DNA of 48,055 nucleotides from Candidatus Omnitrophota bacterium (lineage in GTDB: Bacteria > Omnitrophota > Gorgyraeia > Gygaellales > JBFMBJ01). Shown here piece by piece: positions 2 to 23,630 of this stretch. Below the pieces are notes generated by a model. It was not told the origin of the DNA, searched no databases, and was given only the letters and a program-made list of their open reading frames with translations. Position numbers and translations under genes: made by a program. The first letter of the stretch is position 1, and each line of letters opens with the position of its first letter. The DNA lies in contig JBFMBJ010000001.1 in assembly GCA_040755235.1 (NCBI GenBank), forward strand, positions 1 through 48,055, in the 5' to 3' direction.

Positions 2-565
2 TATAGGTTTGACGGCAAGAGAATAGTAGTCGGTAGGGTTGAAAACGGCATTCTCAATAAAGGACAATCTATCAAAGCGCTACCCAGTAACCAGAATACA
101 AAAATTAAATCTATAGAGGTGTTTTTGAAAGAAAGCGTCAGAAGCTACCCGGGAGAAAGCATAGGGATTACTACTGAAGACGCCATATTTTTAGAGAGGG
201 GTAATGTAATTTGTGAGCAAGGAAAAGAACCAATTTTGACTGATAATTTCCAGGCCAATGTTTTTTGGATGGCAAAAAACAACTTTGATAAAAACGAGAG
301 AATCACATTAAGGTGCGCGACACAAGAGATTAGTTGTAGGGTAGAAAGGATAGAGGAAAGGATAGATTCTTCATCCCTTGAGGTAATAGAAAAAGATGCA
401 AATGAATTAAGATATCTTGAAGTAGGTAAGGTTATTATAAAGACTAAAAAGCCCATAGCCATAAAGGCTTTTAATGAAATGCAGGAATTGGGCAGGTTTG
501 TATTTGTGCATAATGATAACGTTTGCGCCGGCGGGATTATTACTGGAGTAGAGAGTAGAAAGTAG
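2..565 (+). CDS. cysN: Sulfate adenylyltransferase subunit 1 (CysN-type GTPase), C-terminal part; 5' end lies outside the window
   Basis: The frame is open from nt 2 (YRFDGKRIVVGRVENGILNKGQSIKALPS...). EF-Tu-like domain II/III pattern as in CysN: VFWMAK...LRCATQE...GRFVFV...VCAGGII. The stop TAG 563-565 lies inside the heptad array. Confidence 0.7.
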   Translation, partial: YRFDGKRIVVGRVENGILNKGQSIKALPSNQNTKIKSIEVFLKESVRSYPGESIGITTEDAIFLERGNVICEQGKEPILTDNFQANVFWMAKNNFDKNERITLRCATQEISCRVERIEERIDSSSLEVIEKDANELRYLEVGKVIIKTKKPIAIKAFNEMQELGRFVFVHNDNVCAGGIITGVESRK

Positions 566-576
566 CAAGTAGCGAG
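549..576. repeat. Heptad array TAGAGAG TAGAAAG TAGCAAG TAGCGAG (left flank of 4HB cassette 1)
   Basis: Four consecutive TAGNNAG units. The 7-nt period places TAG in all three + strand frames (549, 556, 563, 570). Confidence 0.9.
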
Positions 577-942
577 ATGGAAAGAAAACCAATAAAAAGC
601 GTTGAAGATTTTGAAGTTTAGCAAAAAGCTGTTGGATTATTCGAAGCTTTTTTAGAAGAAGATTTACCTATATTGAAACAGAATTTTGCTGGGAGGGCTT
701 TAGCGAATAATCAGTTAAGGAGCCTCGATTCTATATGCGCCAATATGGAAGAAGGTTACGAAAGAAAATCAGACAAAGAAATAAAAAATTTCTTTAGAAT
801 ATCTAAGGGCTCAACAGGAGAAGCAAGAGGAAGATATAAAAGATTAAAGAAAATATTACCGGAACAAATAATAAATAAACGCGTAGCTGTTCTAAATGAG
901 ATTAGAGCAATGCTTGAAGCTTTAATTAATAAATGGAAATAA
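577..942 (+). pseudogene. Four-helix-bundle protein (23S rRNA intervening-sequence protein / Avd-like family) with one in-frame TAG
   Basis: ATG 577 gives MERKPIKSVEDFEV, then TAG at 619-621, then QKAVGLFEAF...SICANMEEGYERKS...FFRISKGSTGEA in the same frame. The stop replaces the Tyr of the LEVYQ motif seen in the intact paralogs at 12996 and 14589. The ORF track only shows the TTG-started tail 673-942. Confidence 0.75.
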
Positions 943-944
943 AT

Positions 945-972
945 CTCTCTACTCTCTACTTGCTACTCGCTA
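945..972. repeat. Heptad array CTCTCTA CTCTCTA CTTGCTA CTCGCTA (right flank of 4HB cassette 1)
   Basis: Every unit is the reverse complement of TAGNNAG, so TAG falls in all three - strand frames. It forms a 23/28 imperfect inverted repeat with 549-576. Confidence 0.9.
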
Positions 973-993
973 CTTTTTTAAGAGTTTATACAT

Positions 994-10482: not shown

Positions 10483-12909
10483 ATGACTAAGATTTGTTTC
10501 ATAATTGATAATTTAAAGATAGCGGGTGCGCAGAGGCATCTTTTAAGATTGACCAAAGGATTAACCAACAGGGGGTATTCTCCAGAGGTTATTTCCCTTG
10601 GCATTAATGATGAAAATTTAATTAAAGAGATAAAGGCGCCATTGGCTACATTTAAAATGGATTGTATCTGGAGGATGAGTTTTTGGCTGAATTTTATACA
10701 GTTAATTAAATTTATTTCTAAGCAAAGGCCGGTAATAGTCCATACTTACCTTAATACTTCTAATGTCTTTGGGGTTTTATCTGCTAAAATTGCTAAGGTT
10801 CCCATTATTTTCTCCTCGCGCAGAGATTTAGGCCAATTCCGCTCGAGGTTAATTGGCTTGTTAGAGCGTTTTACTGCACATCTTAGCGATAAAGTTGTTT
10901 GTGTTTCCAATGCTGTTCAAAATCATGTTATTGATTCAGAGCGAATTAGTAGAGAGAAAACGGCTGTTATATATAATGGAGTAGACGTAGATAGTTTGCG
11001 AGTTAACGAGTTGACGAGTTGGCGAGTTAGAAAAGAAATCGGAATAGGTGAAAATGAATTAGCAGTTGGAATGATAGCGACGATGGACAGGGAAGAAAAG
11101 GGGCATAAGGAATTCATTGAAGCAGCGGGTTTGGTTGTAAAAGAAATTCCGAACGTCAAATTTCTGCTTATCGGCGACGGTTTTCTTCGTCAAAAGTTAG
11201 AAAACGCAATACGTGATACCTGCCTTGCCGGCAGGCAGGCGCATGACGCAATACGAGGCAAAGTTTTATTTCTTGGTAAACGTAACGGCATACCAGAATT
11301 ATTATCCACAATGGATGTGTCGGTGAACGCTTCATATTCAGAAGGAATGTCCAATACAATTTTAGAGTCTATGGCAGCTGGAGTGCCAGTAGTAGCTACA
11401 GCAATAGATGGCAATCTCGAAACTGTCAAAAGCTTACAGTTTGATTACAGTGATTTAGATAAAGATTACAGTGATAAAAATTGTGCAACTGGGATACTCG
11501 TGCCGCCAAAAGAGCCACAAGCTATGGCAAAAGCTATTATAAAGATACTTAAAGATAAGGAATTAGCTGTGAAGATGGGTGAAAACGCGAGGCGATTAGT
11601 TTACGAAAAATTCTCTCTTGAAACAATGGTGAATAATTACGCTAAACTTTATCAAGATTTATCCGCGCCAATCCGCGTCCAAAACAATCCGCGCCAATCC
11701 GCGTCCACAGTGGGTTATATCGTTTCTCTTTTTCCCTGTTGGTCAGAAACCTTTATCTTAAATGAAATAATAGAGTTAAAGAGAAAAGGTATTGAAGTGA
11801 CTATATTCTCTATAAGAAAAGATTTGGAAGCATTTATTCAAGAGAAGTCAAAACTGCTTATAAAAAATACAATATATCCAGAAAAGCCAGGTGTATTTAG
11901 GTCATTTGTATTTTGGGCTGTAAGAAAACCAGTGACATTGCTTTCAATTTTCTGGTTGGTTGTCAGTAAAAGATATTCAAGCTCAAAAGTTCTACTTAAG
12001 AACATCTGGTGTATTTTTGTCGGTTGCTACTTTGCTACTATTGTAAAAAAAGAGAATATCAAAAACCTCCATGCACATTTTGCAACCTACCCAACTTTAG
12101 TAGCTTTGGTCATATCAAGATTGACTAAGATTAGTTATACTTTTACCAATCATGCTCATGACATATTCTTAGAAAAAGCTCTTTTAAAAGAAAAATCCAG
12201 AGATGCAAAAGCCATAGTTGCTATCTCAAATTATAATAAGCAATATCTGGATAATATTTGTCAAAATGGAGTTATAGATAAGACGCACGTCATTCATTGC
12301 GGCTTAGATTTAGCTGAATTTGTTAATTTAAACGTCAAGCATAAAGATAATACGATTTTGAGTATCGGCAGATTAACCAAAATGAAGGGTTTTGAATATC
12401 TTATTAAAGCTTGCAATCAAATTAAAAATCGCCTGCCTGTCCAATGCCGCATAATTGGCGATGGTCCTTTGAATGATGAATTGGAAAGGTTAATTATTAA
12501 TTTAGGAGTAAGGAGTAGCGTAAAATTAAAAGGGGTAACGGACAACAGTGAGATTAAGCAATTATTACAGGAAAGTGCTGTATTTATCATGTCCAGCGTC
12601 TGGGATGAGCAGGATGGCCAAGATGGCATCCCGATCGTATTAATGGAGGCAATGGCAGCAGGCGTGCCGGTGATAGGTTCAAATATTTCAGGCATACCCG
12701 AATTGATCCAGGATGGTCAGACAGGGCTGTTGGTTGAGCCAGGCAATGTTGTAGATTTGGCAAAGAAGATTGAGCTTTTGTTGAACGATAAAGATTTGCA
12801 GGCTCGCTTAGCTAAAGCAGGCAGGCGTAAGGTTGAAGAGGAATTTGATATTCATAAGAGTGTAGAGAAGCTAATTGAGGTATTTAACTTATCGAGCTGT
12901 CATACATAG
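10483..12909 (+). CDS. Two GT4 glycosyltransferase modules in one ORF (tandem fusion through a repeat linker)
   Basis: Module 1 has SEGMSNTILESMAAGVPVVATAIDGNLE. Module 2 starts like a complete WcaL-type GT (VGYIVSLFPCWSETFILNEIIELKRKGIEV) and has DGIPIVLMEAMAAGVPVIGSNISGIPELIQDGQTGLLV. The junction is the 21-nt direct repeat at 11661-11707. An in-frame GTG at 11710 could be an internal start. Confidence 0.8.
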   Translation: MTKICFIIDNLKIAGAQRHLLRLTKGLTNRGYSPEVISLGINDENLIKEIKAPLATFKMDCIWRMSFWLNFIQLIKFISKQRPVIVHTYLNTSNVFGVLSAKIAKVPIIFSSRRDLGQFRSRLIGLLERFTAHLSDKVVCVSNAVQNHVIDSERISREKTAVIYNGVDVDSLRVNELTSWRVRKEIGIGENELAVGMIATMDREEKGHKEFIEAAGLVVKEIPNVKFLLIGDGFLRQKLENAIRDTCLAGRQAHDAIRGKVLFLGKRNGIPELLSTMDVSVNASYSEGMSNTILESMAAGVPVVATAIDGNLETVKSLQFDYSDLDKDYSDKNCATGILVPPKEPQAMAKAIIKILKDKELAVKMGENARRLVYEKFSLETMVNNYAKLYQDLSAPIRVQNNPRQSASTVGYIVSLFPCWSETFILNEIIELKRKGIEVTIFSIRKDLEAFIQEKSKLLIKNTIYPEKPGVFRSFVFWAVRKPVTLLSIFWLVVSKRYSSSKVLLKNIWCIFVGCYFATIVKKENIKNLHAHFATYPTLVALVISRLTKISYTFTNHAHDIFLEKALLKEKSRDAKAIVAISNYNKQYLDNICQNGVIDKTHVIHCGLDLAEFVNLNVKHKDNTILSIGRLTKMKGFEYLIKACNQIKNRLPVQCRIIGDGPLNDELERLIINLGVRSSVKLKGVTDNSEIKQLLQESAVFIMSSVWDEQDGQDGIPIVLMEAMAAGVPVIGSNISGIPELIQDGQTGLLVEPGNVVDLAKKIELLLNDKDLQARLAKAGRRKVEEEFDIHKSVEKLIEVFNLSSCHT
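10993..11030. repeat. In-frame octamer array (NNCGAGTT x4), copy a
   Basis: agtttgcgagttaacgagttgacgagttggcgagttag encodes SLRVNELTSWRVR. It is 35/38 identical to 13945-13982 in a paralogous GT4, whereas the flanking coding DNA is much less similar. Confidence 0.85.
11204..11255. repeat. In-frame ACGCAATACG pair (42-nt spacing) around a GC-rich hairpin
   Basis: acgcaatacg occurs at 11204-11213 and 11246-11255. The central cctgcc-ttgcc-ggcagg lies at 11219-11235. The segment encodes AIRDTCLAGRQAHDAIRG in a GT4 linker that is normally shorter. Confidence 0.8.
11443..11475. repeat. In-frame GATTACAGTGAT direct repeat, 21-nt period
   Basis: Perfect 12-mers at 11443-11454 and 11464-11475 encode DYSD twice, inside the GT4 E...G loop. 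The reverse complement atcactgtaatc occurs at 18878-18889. Confidence 0.85.
11661..11707. repeat. Perfect 21-nt direct repeat (atccgcgccaatccgcgtcca x2, 5-nt spacer) at the GT4-GT4 junction
   Basis: Units at 11661-11681 and 11687-11707. Each unit is itself two ATCCGCGNCA decamers. The region is translated as SAPIRVQNNPRQSAS. Confidence 0.9.
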
Positions 12910-12991
12910 TCATAGGTAGTCATAAAATGGTCATACAATTGTAAAAGATACTATAAGTATATTGTAATAAATAGTCATACATTGTAAAAAG
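12899..12991. repeat. GTCATA array (left flank of 4HB cassette 2)
   Basis: GTCATA at 12899, 12909, 12919, 12930 (10-11 nt phasing) and 12974. gtcatacaattgtaaaag and gtcatacattgtaaaaag are near duplicates. Stops occur in all three + frames, and the stop of the upstream GT (12907) lies inside the array. Confidence 0.85.
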
Positions 12992-12995
12992 GAGA

Positions 12996-13385
12996 ATGGA
13001 ATTGGCGGGAGATATAAGAGATTTTGATGATTTGGAAGTATATCAGCTGGCTTTAGAATTGGCAGATTGGATATATGATTTAACAAGCAATTTTCCTAGT
13101 GAAGAAAGGTTCAATGTTACCTCGCAGATAAGGGATGCTGCAACTTCAATTGGCGCAAATATAGCCGAAGGCTATGGTCGGTTTCACTATAAAGAAAACA
13201 TTCAATTTTGTAGACAAGCAAGAGGCTCTTTATCTGAGACAAAGCACTTTATGATTTTTAGCAATAAACGCAAGTATATTTCTGATGATATTTACAAAGA
13301 ATTTTTACAAAAATACAAGCAATTACAAATAAAAATTAACAATTATATTAATTCAATTGGTAAGAAGAATAGTGACGATGTATGA
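12996..13385 (+). CDS. Four-helix-bundle protein (23S rRNA IVS protein / Avd-like family)
   Basis: DFDDLEVYQLALEL..., RDAATSIGANIAEGYGRFHYKENIQFCRQARGSLSETKH. SD aaaggag lies 5 nt upstream. Confidence 0.85.
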   Translation: MELAGDIRDFDDLEVYQLALELADWIYDLTSNFPSEERFNVTSQIRDAATSIGANIAEGYGRFHYKENIQFCRQARGSLSETKHFMIFSNKRKYISDDIYKEFLQKYKQLQIKINNYINSIGKKNSDDV

Positions 13386-13417
13386 CAACATTTGACAATG
13401 GTATGACAATATATGAC
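13381..13417. repeat. TATGAC array (right flank of 4HB cassette 2; inverse of the GTCATA array)
   Basis: TATGAC at 13381, 13402 and 13412, plus TTTGAC at 13391 (10-11 nt phasing). The 4HB stop TGA 13383-13385 lies in the first unit. Confidence 0.85.
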
Positions 13418-14548
13418 GATTCACGTGCTTCGGCGCGAAAAATTAACATCCTGCACGTGATTTGGTCCTTAGAAAAAGGCGGCGCGGAAAGATTCTTGGT
13501 TTTGCTGGTTAAAAATTTTGACCAAAGCCGTTTCAATTCCATTGTTTGTTGCCTTAATTGGAAAGGCGAATGGGCAAGCGAACTTGAGGAAAAAGGAATC
13601 AAGGTTATTGCCTTAAATAAAAAAGGTAAGTTCGACATCTGTGTAATCTATAGAATAATCTGTGTAATCAGACAATATAAAATTGATATTGTAAATACTC
13701 ATCTTTGGGCAGCAGATTGCTTAGGAAGGGTTGCGGCTATTTTTGGGGGAGTGCCCATAATTATAAGCACAGTCCAAAATGTAGATATCTGGAAGAAGTT
13801 TTGGCATAAAATCATAGATAAGATGTTGGCGAACCGAACAACCAAATTTATTGCAGTTTCAAAAGCAGTTAAGGAGTTTTTGATTAATACAGAAAAGATT
13901 CCTGAAGAAAAAATTGAGATAATACCGAATGCGATTGATGCAGAAAGTTTGCGAGTTAACGAGTTGGCGGGTTTGCGAGTTAGAGAAGATTTAGGGATTA
14001 AAAACGAAGAGATAGTGCTGACTGTAATTGGAAGATTGGTTGAACAAAAGGGCCATAAATATTTGTTTGAAGCCTTGAGTATGCTGGATGGCAGGTATAG
14101 AGTGAAATTACTGGTGGTTGGTGATGGGCCGCTTAGAGAAAGTTTACAGTTTAAAGTTAACAGTTTACAGTTAGAGAATAAAATTCAATTCTTAGGGCAG
14201 AGAAGAGACATGGCAGAAATATTTAATGCGAGTGATGGTGTGATTTTGCCTTCGCTTTATGAGGGGTTGCCTGTAAGCATTTTAGAGGCGATGGCTGTTG
14301 GTAAGCCTGTAATCGCAACAGATGTTGGCGGCACTTGCGAACTTGTTAAAGATGGAGAAACTGGATTTTTGGCACAAGCAAAAAACAGCAAAAGCTTAGC
14401 ATCTAATATAGAAAAACTTTTAACTTCACCAGATAAAGGAAAAAAAATGGGAGAGAGAGGCAAGGAATTGGTTAATAATGCCTTTTCTATACAGGCTATA
14501 GTTAAAAAAACAGCAGATTTATATCTCTCACTTCTCGGTAACGGTTAG
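13382..14548 (+). CDS. Family 4 glycosyltransferase
   Basis: INILHVIWSLEKGGAE..., YEGLPVSILEAMAVGKPVIATDVGGTCELVKDGETGFL. The first ~15 codons (MTTFDNGMTIYDD) are a translation of the TATGAC array, so the true start is probably downstream (ATG 13403 or later). Confidence 0.8.
   Translation: MTTFDNGMTIYDDSRASARKINILHVIWSLEKGGAERFLVLLVKNFDQSRFNSIVCCLNWKGEWASELEEKGIKVIALNKKGKFDICVIYRIICVIRQYKIDIVNTHLWAADCLGRVAAIFGGVPIIISTVQNVDIWKKFWHKIIDKMLANRTTKFIAVSKAVKEFLINTEKIPEEKIEIIPNAIDAESLRVNELAGLRVREDLGIKNEEIVLTVIGRLVEQKGHKYLFEALSMLDGRYRVKLLVVGDGPLRESLQFKVNSLQLENKIQFLGQRRDMAEIFNASDGVILPSLYEGLPVSILEAMAVGKPVIATDVGGTCELVKDGETGFLAQAKNSKSLASNIEKLLTSPDKGKKMGERGKELVNNAFSIQAIVKKTADLYLSLLGNG
13637..13669. repeat. 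In-frame ATCTGTGTAATC direct repeat, 21-nt period
   Basis: Perfect 12-mers at 13637-13648 and 13658-13669 encode ICVIYRIICVI. Confidence 0.85.
13945..13982. repeat. In-frame octamer array (NNCGAGTT-type), copy b
   Basis: agtttgcgagttaacgagttggcgggtttgcgagttag encodes SLRVNELAGLRVR. It is 35/38 identical to 10993-11030. Confidence 0.85.
14141..14172. repeat. In-frame AGTTTACAGTT direct repeat, 21-nt period
   Basis: Units at 14141-14151 and 14162-14172 encode SLQFKVNSLQL. They share the TTACAG core with 11433-11475. Confidence 0.8.
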
Positions 14549-14581
14549 GGTAACGAAGCCAGTATCGGTAAGGGTAATGGC
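14535..14581. repeat. Flank A of 4HB cassette 3 (GGTAACG/GGTAAGG-type low-complexity array)
   Basis: tcggtaacggttagggtaacgaagccagtatcggtaagggtaatggc. It contains the GT stop TAG 14546-14548 and stops in all + frames. An inverted copy lies at 18716-18763. Confidence 0.85.
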
Positions 14582-14588
14582 AAAGTAA

Positions 14589-14984
14589 ATGGAAAATAAA
14601 AAACGAATAACAAGTTTTAAAGATTTAGAAGTATACCAGAATAGCTACAGAGCTATGCTAAGTGTAATGAAAGAGATTGTTCCGAAATTACCCGAGAGAG
14701 AAAAATACGACTTGGTAGATCAATTGAGTAGAGCCTGTAAGTCAATACCCAGATTGATAGCAGAAGGTTATGCTAAGCGGCACCAAAAGGCAGGTTTCCA
14801 GAAATATATTGATGATGCGATGAGCGAGTCTAATGAAATGGTTGTTAGTTTAAGCGAGTCGCGAGATATATACTTTAATTATATAGATGTGAAACAGTGC
14901 GATGAATTAATTGATATTTATGATAAGACAGGCAGGCAGCTTTATAAATTAGCTGAAAGTTGGACAAATTTTAAAAGACGATAG
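14589..14984 (+). CDS. Four-helix-bundle protein (23S rRNA IVS protein / Avd-like family)
   Basis: SFKDLEVYQNSYRA..., LSRACKSIPRLIAEGYAKRHQKAGFQKYIDDAMSESNE. Confidence 0.85.
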   Translation: MENKKRITSFKDLEVYQNSYRAMLSVMKEIVPKLPEREKYDLVDQLSRACKSIPRLIAEGYAKRHQKAGFQKYIDDAMSESNEMVVSLSESRDIYFNYIDVKQCDELIDIYDKTGRQLYKLAESWTNFKRR

Positions 14985-15040
14985 ACGTAACCCAAGGACG
15001 AAACGGGCATCCTAACCTTAACCTAAAAACGTTGCCATAA
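14983..15040. repeat. Flank B of 4HB cassette 3
   Basis: agacgtaacccaaggacgaaacgggcatcctaaccttaacctaaaaacgttgccataa. Its reverse complement matches 18579-18636 at 54/58 positions. Confidence 0.9.
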
Positions 15041-15057
15041 CGTATAGTGGTATTCAC

Positions 15058-16293: not shown

Positions 16294-16311
16294 CTTATTT
16301 GTCTGAATTTG

Positions 16312-16326
16312 TCCCGCCCTTTTGGC
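16312..16326. repeat. Left arm of a perfect 15-bp inverted repeat around the GIY-YIG gene
   Basis: tcccgcccttttggc is the exact reverse complement of 16601-16615. Confidence 0.95.
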
Positions 16327-16337
16327 TGGAGGTAGGT

Positions 16338-16595
16338 ATGCATTATATTTATTTGTTAAAAAGCGAGAAAGACAACTATATTTATATTGGCAATACCAAT
16401 GATTTAGAAAGAAGATTGGTTGAGCATAATAGCGCTAACAATACAGCTACTAAGAAGCATAGACCTTTTAAATTAGTTTATTACGAAGCTTATTTAGATA
16501 AGAGGGATGCTTTAGATAGAGAAAATAAATTAAAACATCACGGAAGCGTTATTGGACATCTGAAGAAACGATTAAAATATAGTTTATCTTGTTAA
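16338..16595 (+). CDS. Small stand-alone GIY-YIG (URI-domain) nuclease family protein
   Basis: HYIYLLKSEKDNYIYIGNTNDLERRLVEHNS. SD ggagg at 16328-16332. The ORF-track start (TTG 16299) only adds a translation of the left IR arm. Confidence 0.85.
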   Translation: MHYIYLLKSEKDNYIYIGNTNDLERRLVEHNSANNTATKKHRPFKLVYYEAYLDKRDALDRENKLKHHGSVIGHLKKRLKYSLSC

Positions 16596-16600
16596 ATTTC

Positions 16601-16615
16601 GCCAAAAGGGCGGGA
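16601..16615. repeat. Right arm of the perfect 15-bp inverted repeat around the GIY-YIG gene
   Basis: gccaaaagggcggga, 5 nt after the TAA stop. Confidence 0.95.
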
Positions 16616-16628
16616 TTAATTCGTAGAC

Positions 16629-19598: not shown

Positions 19599-19646
19599 GT
19601 CATAAGTAGTCATAAGGTAGTCATACAATGGTCATAAATTGTCATA
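19599..19646. repeat. GTCATA array (left flank of the toxin-antitoxin cassette)
   Basis: GTCATA at 19599, 19609, 19620, 19631 and 19641 (10-11 nt phasing). It is visibly alignable with 12909-12945. Confidence 0.9.
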
Positions 19647-19711
19647 CGATTGTATGAGGCGAGCGTTACATAAATTCAGACTCGATATCTTAAAAATCCT
19701 TACTTTCGTCC

Positions 19712-19740
19712 TTGACGATTTCCTTACTTTGTGCTATACT
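19712..19740 (+). promoter_or_regulatory. Sigma-70-type promoter of the AbrB/toxin pair
   Basis: TTGACG (19712-19717), 17-nt spacer, TATACT (19735-19740). tccttacttt is directly repeated at 19697 and 19721 and is a possible operator. Confidence 0.6.
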
Positions 19741-19761
19741 TGTTACTGGAGGTGAACAAAG

Positions 19762-20022
19762 ATGACAATTACAATGACAGCAAAGAATCAAATAACCATA
19801 CCTAAGAAGATCACAAATGCTTTGGGCTTAGGGAAGGGGTCTATGTTCGAGGTAGAGGTCTCTAGAGATGGGATAGAGCTTATTCCTCTGGAGACAAAAG
19901 AAAGGCAGTTCACAGATGAGGAATACGTGAAATTAGAGACCCTTGCAGCCAAAGAAAAGGGGAAAGAAAAACATGTAACAAAAAGGTTCATCGATAATTT
20001 AAAAAAGGGAAAATCTAATTAA
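19762..20022 (+). CDS. AbrB/MazE/SpoVT-family antitoxin
   Basis: MTAKNQITIPKKITNALGLGKGSMFEVEV (swapped-hairpin motif). It overlaps the downstream gene by 1 nt (TAATG). Confidence 0.75.
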   Translation: MTITMTAKNQITIPKKITNALGLGKGSMFEVEVSRDGIELIPLETKERQFTDEEYVKLETLAAKEKGKEKHVTKRFIDNLKKGKSN

Positions 20023-20330
20023 TGTCTTTACGCCTTTATTACAGGCCTTCTTTTAAAAGAAGCATCAAGCGTTTAGGATATGAACAGAAGAAAACAGTAG
20101 GACTGATAATTGAATCTTTAGCTGTTTATTATTCTCGTGAGTGTAATCTGCTAGAGGCACAAAAGATAGCACCACGATTTTTTTATAAACAACTAAGAAA
20201 GCCCTATTATGAAGCCGGTATCGAAGGAACCATCCGAGTGATTATAAGACGAGAGGGTGAAAATTGTATTGTAGTATTAGCCGGGAATCATGACCAAATA
20301 AAACAATTTCTGGCCAGCGTACAGTGTTGA
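20022..20330 (+). CDS. Putative type II toxin (RelE/ParE-like small basic protein)
   Basis: Size, position after the AbrB antitoxin and translational coupling support the call. YRPSFKRSIKRLGYEQKKTVGLIIESL resembles RelE/ParE N-termini. The family assignment is tentative. Confidence 0.5.
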   Translation: MSLRLYYRPSFKRSIKRLGYEQKKTVGLIIESLAVYYSRECNLLEAQKIAPRFFYKQLRKPYYEAGIEGTIRVIIRREGENCIVVLAGNHDQIKQFLASVQC

Positions 20331-20373
20331 AGAAGTACTGCCAAAGGATAAAATAACCCCTCAGAAATCTCCC

Positions 20374-20412
20374 CATGACAATCTTGTGACAACAATATGA
20401 CAACCTTATGAC
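20374..20412. repeat. (C/T)ATGAC array (right flank of the toxin-antitoxin cassette)
   Basis: catgaca at 20374, tgtgac at 20385, tatgac at 20396 and 20407 (11-nt phasing). It is alignable with 13381-13417. Confidence 0.85.
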
Positions 20413-20421
20413 AATATATCG

Positions 20422-21537
20422 ATGAAAGTTCTCTTTTACATTTCTCTCGCAACCATTCTCTACACCTACATCGGCTATCCTTTAACCATATATTTGTTAA
20501 GTTTGGTTATAAATAAGCCGGTTAAGAAAGGTGAGATCTACCCGGCTGTTTCTATGCTAATTGCTGCTTATAATGAAGAAAAATATATTGAGGAGAAAAT
20601 TGAATCAATTTTAGCGCTGGATTATCCTACGGAAAAAATTGAAATCTTGATTGGTTCAGACGGCTCTGTTGATAAAACCGATGAAATAGTATCAAAGTTT
20701 GTAAACAATCGCTTAAGCCTTTTTCGGCAACAGATAAGAGAGGGGAAGCCGTTGGTATTAAATTCTTTGGTATCCCATGCTAAAAACGAAATATTAGTTT
20801 TTTCCGACGCGAGGCAAAGATTGGATAAAAATTGCCTGAAGCATTTAGTAGTTAACTTTAGCGATAAGACCATTGGATCGGTGAGTGCGCAATTAATTTT
20901 CCAGGATGATGGAGGAAATAAAGGGATAGGACTATATTGGAATTATGAAAAATTTATCCGTAATAGTGAATCGAAATTAGCTTCAATGTTAGGCGCAACA
21001 GGTGCTTTATATGCAATCAGGAAAGAATTGTTCACCTTACTGCCTGAAAACTTAATTTTAGATGACGTTTATATTCCTTTAAAAGTTGTCGAGAAAAATT
21101 ATCGAGCAATTTTTGAGCCCAGGGCAATAATTTATGACCATATTGCGGAAAGTCCTAAAGGCGAGTTTTTGAGAAAAGTTAGAACCTTGGCTGGTAATTT
21201 TCAAATTTTCGGCCTTCTAAAAGGCCTGTTTAACCCTTTTAAAAGCTCGGTTGCTTTTCAGCTCTTTTCACATAAGTTTTTGCGGCTTACGGTGCCTTAT
21301 TTATTAGTCTGTCTTTTTATATCTAATATATTTATTTTGAATAATGCCTTTTTAAAAACTTTCTTTTATTTACAGGTTATTTTTTATTCCTTAGCTTTTT
21401 TCGGAATATTTATAAAACGCACCAGTAAACTGATAGATATCGCTAATATGTTTTGCGTAATGAACTGGGCAGCTGTGGTTGGATTATATGGATTTTTAAC
21501 TCATAAACAGGAAGTGGCGTGGGAGAAAACGAGTTAG
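20422..21537 (+). CDS. Membrane-anchored family 2 glycosyltransferase (processive-synthase-like)
   Basis: N-terminal TM segment, SMLIAAYNEEKYIEEKIESILALDYP...GSDGSVDKT, VFSDARQ, and C-terminal TM helices. Confidence 0.8.
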   Translation: MKVLFYISLATILYTYIGYPLTIYLLSLVINKPVKKGEIYPAVSMLIAAYNEEKYIEEKIESILALDYPTEKIEILIGSDGSVDKTDEIVSKFVNNRLSLFRQQIREGKPLVLNSLVSHAKNEILVFSDARQRLDKNCLKHLVVNFSDKTIGSVSAQLIFQDDGGNKGIGLYWNYEKFIRNSESKLASMLGATGALYAIRKELFTLLPENLILDDVYIPLKVVEKNYRAIFEPRAIIYDHIAESPKGEFLRKVRTLAGNFQIFGLLKGLFNPFKSSVAFQLFSHKFLRLTVPYLLVCLFISNIFILNNAFLKTFFYLQVIFYSLAFFGIFIKRTSKLIDIANMFCVMNWAAVVGLYGFLTHKQEVAWEKTS

Positions 21538-21571
21538 GAACGAGGGACGAGAGGCGATGGACGAAAGGCGG
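21526..21571. repeat. ACGAG-type octamer-like array straddling the GT2 stop
   Basis: aaacgagttaggaacgagggacgagaggcgatggacgaaaggcgg. It shares the aacgagtt unit with 10993-11030 and 13945-13982. Confidence 0.7.
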
Positions 21572-21760: not shown

Positions 21761-21794
21761 TTGACAAAATAATCCCTTATGGTAATTTATTACC
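21761..21794 (+). promoter_or_regulatory. Possible sigma-70 promoter with an overlapping palindrome upstream of the MNT/HEPN pair
   Basis: TTGACA (21761-21766), 16-nt spacer, TAATTT. GGTAAT-TT-ATTACC palindrome at 21781-21794. Confidence 0.35.
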
Positions 21795-21811
21795 ATAAAC
21801 ATGGTGAAAAC

Positions 21812-22357
21812 ATGATATCTTTACGTTCAAAAGTGGCAATAAAATTACTGGATTATTATTTCCTTAATCCTGATGCTAAACATTATATCAATGAATTGGC
21901 GAGGACTTTAGACCTTGATCCTAAAAATACCGAAACTAAGCTTAAGGAATTCGAAAAAAAAGGCATTTTTAAAAGTGAATTCCGCGGTAAAGAAAGGTAT
22001 TTTTTCTTAGCAAAGGATAGCCCCGTTTTAGAGCATTACCGCCAGATTTTCCTGAAGACTTATGGTATAGAGAAGAGGCTTAAAGATACGCTACGAGGTA
22101 TTAAGGGACTTAAGGAGGCATATCTATTTGGCTCATACGCAACCAATAAGATGGATTTTTCAAGCGATATTGATATCTTGGCCATCGGTTCGCACTCTGT
22201 TTTGGAATTACAGAGGATGATTGTTAAGTTACAGAAGGATACAGACAGAGAAGTCAATGTAATGAATTTAAGCCTCAAGGAATTTGAGGTAAAGAAAAAA
22301 AAGAAAGACCCTTTTATAACCAATGTCTTTAAAACCAAGACTATAAGGATCGTATGA
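21812..22357 (+). CDS. Nucleotidyltransferase (MNT-type) with an N-terminal winged-helix domain
   Basis: HYINELARTL... wHTH-like N-terminus. AYLFGSYATNKMDFSSDIDILAIG is the G[SG]-x(n)-DxD NTase motif. The start was moved to ATG 21812. Confidence 0.75.
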   Translation: MISLRSKVAIKLLDYYFLNPDAKHYINELARTLDLDPKNTETKLKEFEKKGIFKSEFRGKERYFFLAKDSPVLEHYRQIFLKTYGIEKRLKDTLRGIKGLKEAYLFGSYATNKMDFSSDIDILAIGSHSVLELQRMIVKLQKDTDREVNVMNLSLKEFEVKKKKKDPFITNVFKTKTIRIV

Positions 22358-23569: not shown

Positions 23570-23630
23570 CATATCGTGTATAGCGTATTGAGTATTGCGC
23601 AATACGCACGACGCACAACGCAATACGAAA
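23570..23630. repeat. Cargo-less palindromic element of the CGTATTG / CAATACG family
   Basis: The left half is cgtattgagtattgcg and the right half is cgcaatacgcacgacgcacaacgcaatacg. The central perfect 14-bp palindrome gtattgcgcaatac lies at 23592-23605. Confidence 0.85.

Follow-up and report, generated by a model that had tools for sequence, protein, structure and literature searches.

How do two glycosyltransferase genes that otherwise resemble each other only distantly come to carry nearly the same 38 nucleotides (nt) at the same place? The question arises in a stretch of 48,055 nt from an assembly labelled Candidatus Omnitrophota bacterium (contig JBFMBJ010000001.1), hereafter the window, whose DNA has 35.6% G+C and whose gene content is that of a PEP-CTERM/exosortase exopolysaccharide operon. 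Two genes of glycosyltransferase family 4 (GT4) lie there in the same orientation, spaced 2.95 kb apart, namely gene A, which encodes a fused pair of GT4 modules, and gene B, which encodes a single one (Table 1), and each holds a short tandem array of octamer units in its linker. The answer we favour, with reasonable rather than high confidence, is that the segment is an in-frame copy of a dispersed short tandem repeat, shared by the two genes through copying from array to array within loops that tolerate it.

Near-identity at the level of DNA

The two copies agree at 35 of 38 nt (36 of 39 if the next base is counted), with a perfect match of 21 nt in common, and each begins at codon position 1 between an NGVD/NAID motif and a (K/E)xxGI motif. 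When the GT4 domains of genes A and B are aligned by codon, identity reaches 90% across the 14 codons of the segment, against 46% at the nucleotide and 30% at the amino acid level over the 348 aligned codons outside it; at this background, 35 or more matches in 38 have a binomial probability of 3e-9. Local nucleotide identity spikes to 0.92 against a mean of 0.48 across the alignment, as expected of a gene-conversion patch, and the high-identity tract has the same end points as the octamer periodicity. Moreover, residues identical in the two products use identical codons in 10 of 10 cases inside the segment and in 47 of 104 outside it (Fisher p = 0.0013). On this comparison, the segment is a DNA-level repeat and not a conserved peptide, as an earlier reading of the DNA from its letters alone (the sequence-only reading) had claimed. 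That reading was also right about the octamer array, the matching position in two diverged GT4 domains, both translations and the place of copy 1, while copy 2, correctly spelled, lies one base further on than it had been put. The codon-level alignment was its own proposed check, and with the rest of the domains at 46%, the uniformly high identity of a simple recent duplication is not seen.

Both host domains pair a Glyco_transf_4 N-domain with a Glycos_transf_1 C-domain in the GT-B fold (Pfam E-values 1e-23 to 1e-74), and solved structures among their homologues include 7mi0 and 5d00. The nearest homologue of the gene B product is 66% identical, no exact record of the product was found in the look-up, and the few homologues that carry a name are mostly labelled Candidatus Omnitrophota. 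Syntenic loci were recovered three times (L001, L215 and L216), and an assembly artefact appears unlikely because in all three the orthologues of genes A and B can be aligned with them over the full length.

The segment reads as (GTTNNCGA)x5, or YAACTCGN units on the opposite strand, and its period-8 autocorrelation is 0.81 in copy 1 and 0.71 in copy 2 (5 units of AGTTNNCG). Allowing at most one mismatch, CGAGTTNNCGAGTT has 6 matches in the window against 0.06 expected, every one of them at the two copies. A further array (array 3), made of heptamers, occupies the second variable loop of gene B, GDGPLRE-SLQFKVNSLQLE-NKIQFLG, and reads TAACTGT/AAACTGT in reverse complement; like the octamer copies, it is built head to tail from at least three units, each of 7-8 nt and all keeping one core. 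Arrays with an AGTT core thus number three in the window against 0.09 expected, and all three lie in frame within genes A and B and read AGTT on the coding strand, that is, in the 'reverse', stop-free orientation. Stops are possible only in the AGT-TNN frame of this orientation, in which the spacers are TG and GG in gene A and TG and TG in gene B, while the common AA and GA spacers sit in harmless frames of copies 1 and 2. Translation within an open reading frame (ORF) is limited to the reverse orientation because only that orientation can stay open.

The two copies stand alone as direct repeats. The 48-kb window has no AACTCG array on its + strand and hence no complementary partner for either copy; their RNA folds have minimum free energies of -7.7 and -7.1 kcal/mol, with no excess structure over shuffled sequences (z = +0.09 and +0.73), and an Rfam scan of the window and 12 array-bearing loci matched only a tRNA. 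The sequence-only reading had also seen the unit recur at the 3' end of a glycosyltransferase family 2 (GT2) gene (20422-21537). One shared unit is indeed there, an exact AACGAGTT at 21527-21534 that overlaps the stop codon, but the rest is a different, heptamer array, and the whole sits at the left border of a nucleotidyltransferase cassette inserted there.

Units of 8 nt in such a gene bring phase variation to mind. Phase variation mediated by repeats is classically found in glycosyltransferases of surface polysaccharides, the octanucleotide repeats of Haemophilus losA among the examples, and in-frame 7- and 8-nt arrays recur in the GT4 genes of related loci, a few without any mismatch (100% matches at L124 3247-3278 and L125 4212-4243). 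A contingency locus of this kind, in which slippage by 8 nt would frameshift the GT4 gene and switch an exopolysaccharide glycosyltransferase on and off, is nevertheless decidedly improbable here. The window arrays have variable spacers and just 4-5 units, and the octamer tract, at 3.9 copies with 86% matches, is far from long and perfect; slippage offers no reason why genes A and B should share the order of their spacers, and the same arrays are found in non-coding hairpins and 5' leaders.

As modelled, the array is the inter-domain crossover of a GT-B (GT4) enzyme. The AlphaFold2 model of the gene B product (mean predicted local distance difference test score, pLDDT, 94.9) shows two Rossmann-like domains, and residues 189-201 run from the end of a helix (187-190) through a turn into a second helix (194-203), after which the C-terminal domain opens with its first strand. 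The linker expected by the sequence-only reading is therefore found at the crossover, but as an ordered helix-turn-helix (pLDDT about 94). Among homologues the sequence at this site is free to vary, with indels and internal repeats, and the length in gene B equals that of its orthologues while gene A is one codon longer, which bears out the earlier description of a variable linker of normal length. A protein-level scan found a modest enrichment of 7-9 amino acid periodicity at the linker, in 7 of 120 A-family and 4-6 of 119 B-family proteins. Furthermore, locus L127 carries at the same GT4 linker a 27-nt unit in 3.9 copies (2867-2970, 97% matches), in frame and translated as LPRNDTLKV x3, and the site therefore also tolerates repeats that add length.

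Could the peptide itself be what is kept? On such an account, SLRVNEL..RVR would be a functional motif under protein selection, its codon identity owed to chance or codon bias, and the ordered model as well as one orthologue, P0002, lend it something. P0002 is the syntenic gene B orthologue of L001 (L001-B); it has SLKVDES..IK at the linker, so that conservation with other codons, named by the sequence-only reading as a counter-argument, is present weakly in a single orthologue, whose DNA keeps a residual period of 8. However, with window gene B set aside, the motif is missing in the other 238 of 239 homologues of genes A and B, close relatives have entirely different linkers, the periodicity is strictly 8 nt, and codon identity of 10/10 stands against 45% outside. 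Codons and homologues together in effect refute conservation of the peptide, which seems to us barely credible.

Gene A has other repeat-like additions. Relative to gene B it contains lineage-specific extra segments (11217-11241 and 11440-11480), and its product is 41 residues longer than that of the L001 orthologue. The extra segment in loop 2 is a G+C-rich palindrome, CCTGCCTTGCCGGCAGGCAGG, and the other is a 21-nt duplication, GATTACAGTGAT..., with the peptide DYSDLDKDYSDK. Exactly at the junction of the two gene A modules, at 11661-11708, lies a 10-11 nt repeat (TCCGCGCCAA / TCCGCGTCCA, in two 21-nt copies) translated as APIRVQNNPRQSAS.

Relatives of the array in other genomes and in neighbouring genes

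The octamer is dispersed far beyond this operon. Its three-unit pattern, CGAGTTNNCGAGTTNNCGRGTT, occurs at no fewer than 120 loci in species-representative genomes, from phyla that include Bacteroidota, Acidobacteriota, Planctomycetota, Patescibacteria and Omnitrophota, and in 22 viral contigs, and a 22-mer of the window copies, CGAGTTAACGAGTTGRCGRGTT, occurs at 65 metagenome loci against an estimated chance level of about 1 or fewer. At 32 of the 120 genome loci and 32 of the 65 metagenome loci, a partner array in inverted orientation is found no more than 900 nt away (5 and 0 in controls). In 45 of 68 such pairs the arms are less than 150 nt apart and form hairpins without cargo, while at L007, L050, L071 and L184 the inverted pairs surround a gene of the 23S_rRNA_IVP family (IVP). 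Arrays in the forward (AACTCG) orientation end at most 40 nt 5' of an ORF start at 21 of 65 loci, compared with 2 of 65 in the opposite orientation. This dispersal and placement upstream of starts were observed in other genomes.

Some of these loci combine arrays in other ways. On five separate metagenome contigs of 38-42% G+C (L134, L150, L160, L169 and L179), a AACGCAAA-type octamer array lies directly 5' of a CGAGTT array. In a Planctomycetia metagenome-assembled genome (CAYJVR010000010.1; L104, 385-505), a complete pair of inverted arrays, GGCGAGTT x3 and then CAAACCCG x5, lies in frame within a GT4-like ORF; it is translated as SQLASWRVSGLTGKPANGQTGERANRQTRKPANPQTRKPAN and adds about 42 residues ahead of NYHGVD (fold -48 kcal/mol, z = -1.7).

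Sharing between neighbouring GT4 genes recurs with other units. In L215 the linkers of genes A and B have a common octamer, AAGTCACC x4, which differs from the window unit; the best 12-codon window of their alignment reaches 0.83 nucleotide identity, against 0.69 or less in the other windows, and loop 2 of gene B holds a heptamer version, AAGTCAC. Two GT4 genes of L124 have AAGTCAC in loop 2 at 0.92 nucleotide identity, and the start of loop 2 is common to genes A and B of L216 at 0.89; the corresponding comparison in L001 showed no shared segment of this kind. In L126, units found in the GT4 linkers (CAAGTCA, GGACGAA and a CGAGTT array translated as FNEFSELRVG) recur in adjacent GT4 genes, and in L125 two adjacent GT4 genes have GAAGGGA, but in different loops and codon phases. 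L124 to L127 were picked for their periodic-looking peptides and so form a biased sample. In the sequences compared, arrays group by genome and not by gene, a pattern that would be the signature of copying or homogenisation between arrays.

This pattern bears on a simpler account, ordinary short-tract conversion between tandem paralogues, with an octamer that arose by local slippage and has nothing to do with the dispersed arrays or the IVP cassettes. The spacing and shared orientation of genes A and B suit it, as do the B-type linker of gene A and the presence of just two octamer array copies in the 48-kb window. Yet the identity tract is the array exactly, between flanks that at 46% offer no homology; the 22-mer occurs at 65 unrelated metagenome loci, and the unit also forms the arms of IVP genes; and sharing by genome is repeated with other units in L215, L124, L216, L125 and L126, some of it at non-equivalent loops. 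We regard conversion of this ordinary kind as unlikely, although not far-fetched.

The arrays might instead be selected as recombination substrates, in-phase repeats at a domain boundary that promote in-frame deletion or fusion and so yield hybrid glycosyltransferases (an A N-domain with a B C-domain) and varied polysaccharide. Each window copy begins at codon position 1, and the two have their 21-nt perfect match in common, so that a crossover would stay in frame, and the same holds in L215. Matched arrays do not always occupy equivalent loops in the same codon phase: those of L125 differ in both, which makes domain shuffling less likely. Furthermore, comparison of window genes A and B with the L001, L215 and L216 orthologues revealed no mosaic breakpoints at the arrays (identity is 59-75% between segments, and no relative changes rank at the array), nor were chimeric proteins seen among the homologues. 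A role in domain exchange is, in our judgement, very improbable.

Probable copying between arrays, and the cassettes of the operon

The recovered orthologues give the array a history. A simple insertion does not fit, since the gene B segment matches the L001-B linker at 26 of 39 positions, the 47th percentile within that gene. As its likeness to the L001-B linker equals that of the rest of the gene, the array has probably been present in gene B for long; L001-B itself shows a weak period of 8 (0.42, p = 0.025). The gene A segment matches its own L001 orthologue at 13 of 39 positions ungapped (16 of 36 in the codon alignment), the 5th percentile of that gene, and L001-B at 25 of 39. Because it resembles L001-B and not L001-A, the gene A linker was most likely overwritten by the B type, in the direction B to A, and would be a recent copy.

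The mechanism we propose builds on this. The 38-nt segment is an in-frame instance of the tandem repeat GTTNNCGA, an octamer relative of the TAACTGA heptamers discussed below, in the variable GT-B crossover, where it is translated as a turn and the start of a helix. Copying would be non-reciprocal and run from array to array, by short-patch conversion or template switching, with the repeat itself as the sole homology needed, and in the window would have led from the old B copy to the recent A copy. The near-identity of the paralogues would then stem neither from common descent of the genes nor from selection on the peptide, and we infer that the array has no dedicated function.

Several points weigh against this proposal. 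Classical RecA-type conversion would have no homology to start from, because the flanks are only about 46% identical, and the copying mechanism is itself an inference. The enrichment in public collections depends on an estimated collection size, and the loci were chosen by the pattern itself. Some protein-level constraint may contribute, because the segment is modelled confidently as a helix-turn-helix. The resemblance of P0002 could be convergent, because this orthologue is nested among relatives whose linkers bear other units, a nesting that also suggests fast array turnover. If, on the other hand, the B array predates the split from L001, its periodicity of 0.71 calls for renewed homogenisation or selection. 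Finally, the donor could be a third array copy outside the 48-kb window.

Relative to L001 and L216, the window has a series of small intergenic cassettes (Table 1). The IVP1 cassette between genes A and B is missing from both of these loci, as are the GIY-YIG and MazE-like cassettes; in L215 the corresponding gap between genes also holds a GIY-YIG gene. The inverted arms of the IVP and toxin-antitoxin cassettes of the window are short tandem arrays of 7-11 nt units; tandem-unit inverted arms flank 10 of the 11 IVP genes examined, from several phyla, and searches of the literature turned up no account of IVP genes with arms of this kind. Arms of this sort reach into coding sequence, as the last codons and stop of gene A (TGT CAT ACA TAG) lie inside the left arm of IVP1, and the right arm contains the start codon of gene B and overlaps the first 18 codons of that gene, which the L001 orthologue lacks.

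Table 1. Coordinates of the arrays, host genes and cassettes in the window
Feature	Position	Strand	Composition and context
Octamer array copy 1	10993-11030	+	AGTT-TG-CGAGTT-AA-CGAGTT-GA-CGAGTT-GG-CGAGTT-AG; gene A codons 171-183; peptide SLRVNELTSWRVR; NGVD before, KEIGI after
Octamer array copy 2	13946-13983	+	gene B codons 189-201; peptide SLRVNELAGLRVR; codon phase as copy 1
Gene A	10483-12909	+	808 amino acids; fused pair of GT4 modules
Gene B	13382-14548	+	388 amino acids; single GT4 module
Array 3 (heptamers)	14141-14172	+	AGTTTAC AGTTTAA AGTTAAC AGTTTAC AGTT; 5 units, in frame in gene B
GT2 3' end array	21526-21571	+	one AACGAGTT unit, then ACGAGGG/ACGAAGG/ACGAGAG/ACGAAAG heptamer array
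IVP1 cassette	12898-13420	+	between genes A and B; 23S_rRNA_IVP gene 12996-13385
IVP1 left arm	12898-12985		GTCATA-type (GTCATAnnnn) tandem units
IVP1 right arm	13373-13420		inverted, TATGAC
IVP cassette	547-976		23S_rRNA_IVP (PF05635) gene 622-939; inverted arms of GAGTAGN units
IVP cassette	14535-15050		23S_rRNA_IVP (PF05635) gene 14589-14984; inverted arms of GGTAACG units
GIY-YIG cassette	16299-16622		GIY-YIG gene 16299-16595; 22-nt inverted repeat, 91% complementary
MazE-like cassette	19602-20419		MazE-like pair 19762-20330; inverted GTCATA/TATGAC arrays, unit as IVP1 arms
Nucleotidyltransferase cassette			inserted cassette; nucleotidyltransferase gene 21779-22357

Two further observations belong here. 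A palindrome of heptamer arrays without cargo, GCGTATT / AATACGC, lies at 23572-23625 between an exosortase gene and an EpsI-like gene. In L126, two inserted cassettes, first IVP and then nucleotidyltransferase-HEPN, are each followed by a second copy of the beginning of the downstream GT4 gene, about 45-50 nt from its 5' end (1036-1090 and 2203-2245; MIKILY(V/I)IDKMKPAG), which suggests serial insertions that duplicated their target.

Might the linker arrays then be what IVP-type cassettes leave behind, either a footprint or solo arm of a cassette lost from the linker, or arms written into nearby genes when a cassette arrived? Tandem arms at 10 of 11 IVP genes, CGAGTT arms in L007, L050 and L071, and the stop and start codons already supplied by the IVP1 arms all make the idea attractive, and an IVP gene between A and B coincides with matched linker arrays in the window and L215 (2 of 2) and both are lacking in L001 and L216 (0 of 2). 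However, this correlation is 2 against 2. The units of the local IVP arms differ from those of the linker arrays both in the window and in L215; arrays are shared in L124 and L125 too, where the locus as fetched contains no IVP gene; and copies 1 and 2, far from forming an inverted pair around an IVP gene, are both direct and inside GT4 genes. The IVP proteins of the window and L215 are only about 30% identical, and IVP proteins in general do not group by arm unit (25-43% identity, except 52% between L007 and L104). We therefore think a cassette footprint quite unlikely.

A bolder reading, to which we give a small though real chance, is that the arrays, far from being passive debris, form the active termini of a kind of small cassette not described before, whose units are actively copied into the loops of neighbouring glycosyltransferase genes. 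The cargo would be an IVP, toxin-antitoxin, GIY-YIG or nucleotidyltransferase gene between inverted tandem-repeat arms, with cargo-less hairpins as further members. Such cassettes would have colonised polysaccharide operons, in which genome-specific matched arrays would drive concerted evolution, frameshift switching or domain exchange.

Returning to array-to-array copying of a dispersed repeat, its consequences, if it is true, would go beyond this operon. Tandem repeats of 7-8 nt, known mainly from intergenic DNA, would also rewrite the surface loops of enzymes, and do so coordinately: a locus-specific array occupies variable loops of adjacent GT4 genes in the window and in five related uncultured (Omnitrophota-like) loci, often the same loop. 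This would provide a testable case of sequence exchange between genes without other nucleotide homology, and would connect the repeats with the IVP (Avd-like four-helix-bundle) cassettes, themselves poorly understood. In practice, such arrays can mislead the dating of paralogues, the detection of recombination and the annotation of gene starts and stops, the last because an array supplies the stop codon of gene A and the start codon of gene B.

Comparison with known systems

Rickettsia palindromic elements (RPE) are palindromic, length-adding elements of about 100-150 bp specific to Rickettsia. The likeness to them proposed by the sequence-only reading is sound in that a dispersed repeat is translated in frame at a structurally tolerant site, here a loop. 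The structural analogy fails because the segment is not palindromic: it is 38 nt long, direct, tandem and length-neutral, has no self-complementarity (fold z = +0.1 and +0.7), and shows neither a stable palindromic stem-loop nor about 30-50 added residues.

The closest comparison is with the TAACTGA heptamers, direct repeats described from Beggiatoaceae, cyanobacteria and Bacteroidetes (MacGregor 2015, PMC4679880). According to that paper, they lie just 5' of start codons in forward orientation, are occasionally translated in variable or terminal regions of ORFs in reverse orientation, for example in a surface loop of a beta-prime-like RNA polymerase subunit ORF and at the end of MurG, and have a patchy phylogenetic distribution. 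The window arrays are likewise short tandem direct repeats with a TAACT core in common (array 3 being TAACTGT/AAACTGT), related octamer loci likewise lie 5' of ORF starts in forward orientation (21 of 65), and the in-ORF arrays of the window are all reverse and in variable regions. They differ in that the window unit has 8 nt (YAACTCGN) with two variable positions; because only array 3 is within one mismatch, the octamer is a variant and not TAACTGA itself. Other differences are the phylum, here probably Omnitrophota, the GT4 linker site, the near-identical sharing by neighbouring paralogues and the inverted arms around IVP genes, and a term search of PMC4679880 returned none of the last three. 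Array sharing between neighbouring glycosyltransferase genes is an unexpected and recurrent property of this repeat variant.

Long simple sequence repeats with 7-8 nt units were described by Mrazek and co-workers, as summarised in PMC4679880. Simple-sequence contingency loci resemble the window arrays in having units that are not a multiple of three within a surface-polysaccharide glycosyltransferase gene; the window units, in contrast, are imperfect and in 4-5 copies, and their spacer order is common to two genes, which slippage does not explain. In Borg elements, as reported in PMC9879509, fast-evolving nucleotide tandem repeats create new intrinsically disordered protein regions. Tandem repeats are translated into linker-like protein segments in both cases, but the window array takes the place of a linker that already existed and is ordered, with its length kept.

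Lastly, inverted repeats flank the IVP (PF05635) gene carried by intervening sequences of 23S rRNA (Ralph and McClelland 1993, as cited in PMC3936711). The segment studied here differs as a solo direct array in a protein-coding gene, not an inverted pair, and the window cassettes differ in having arms of tandem 7-11 nt units and mRNA operons, not rRNA, as hosts. The three IVP cassettes of the window nonetheless share the plan of a small four-helix-bundle gene with inverted repeats inserted into a transcription unit, and in other genomes the window octamer itself serves as the arms of such cassettes.

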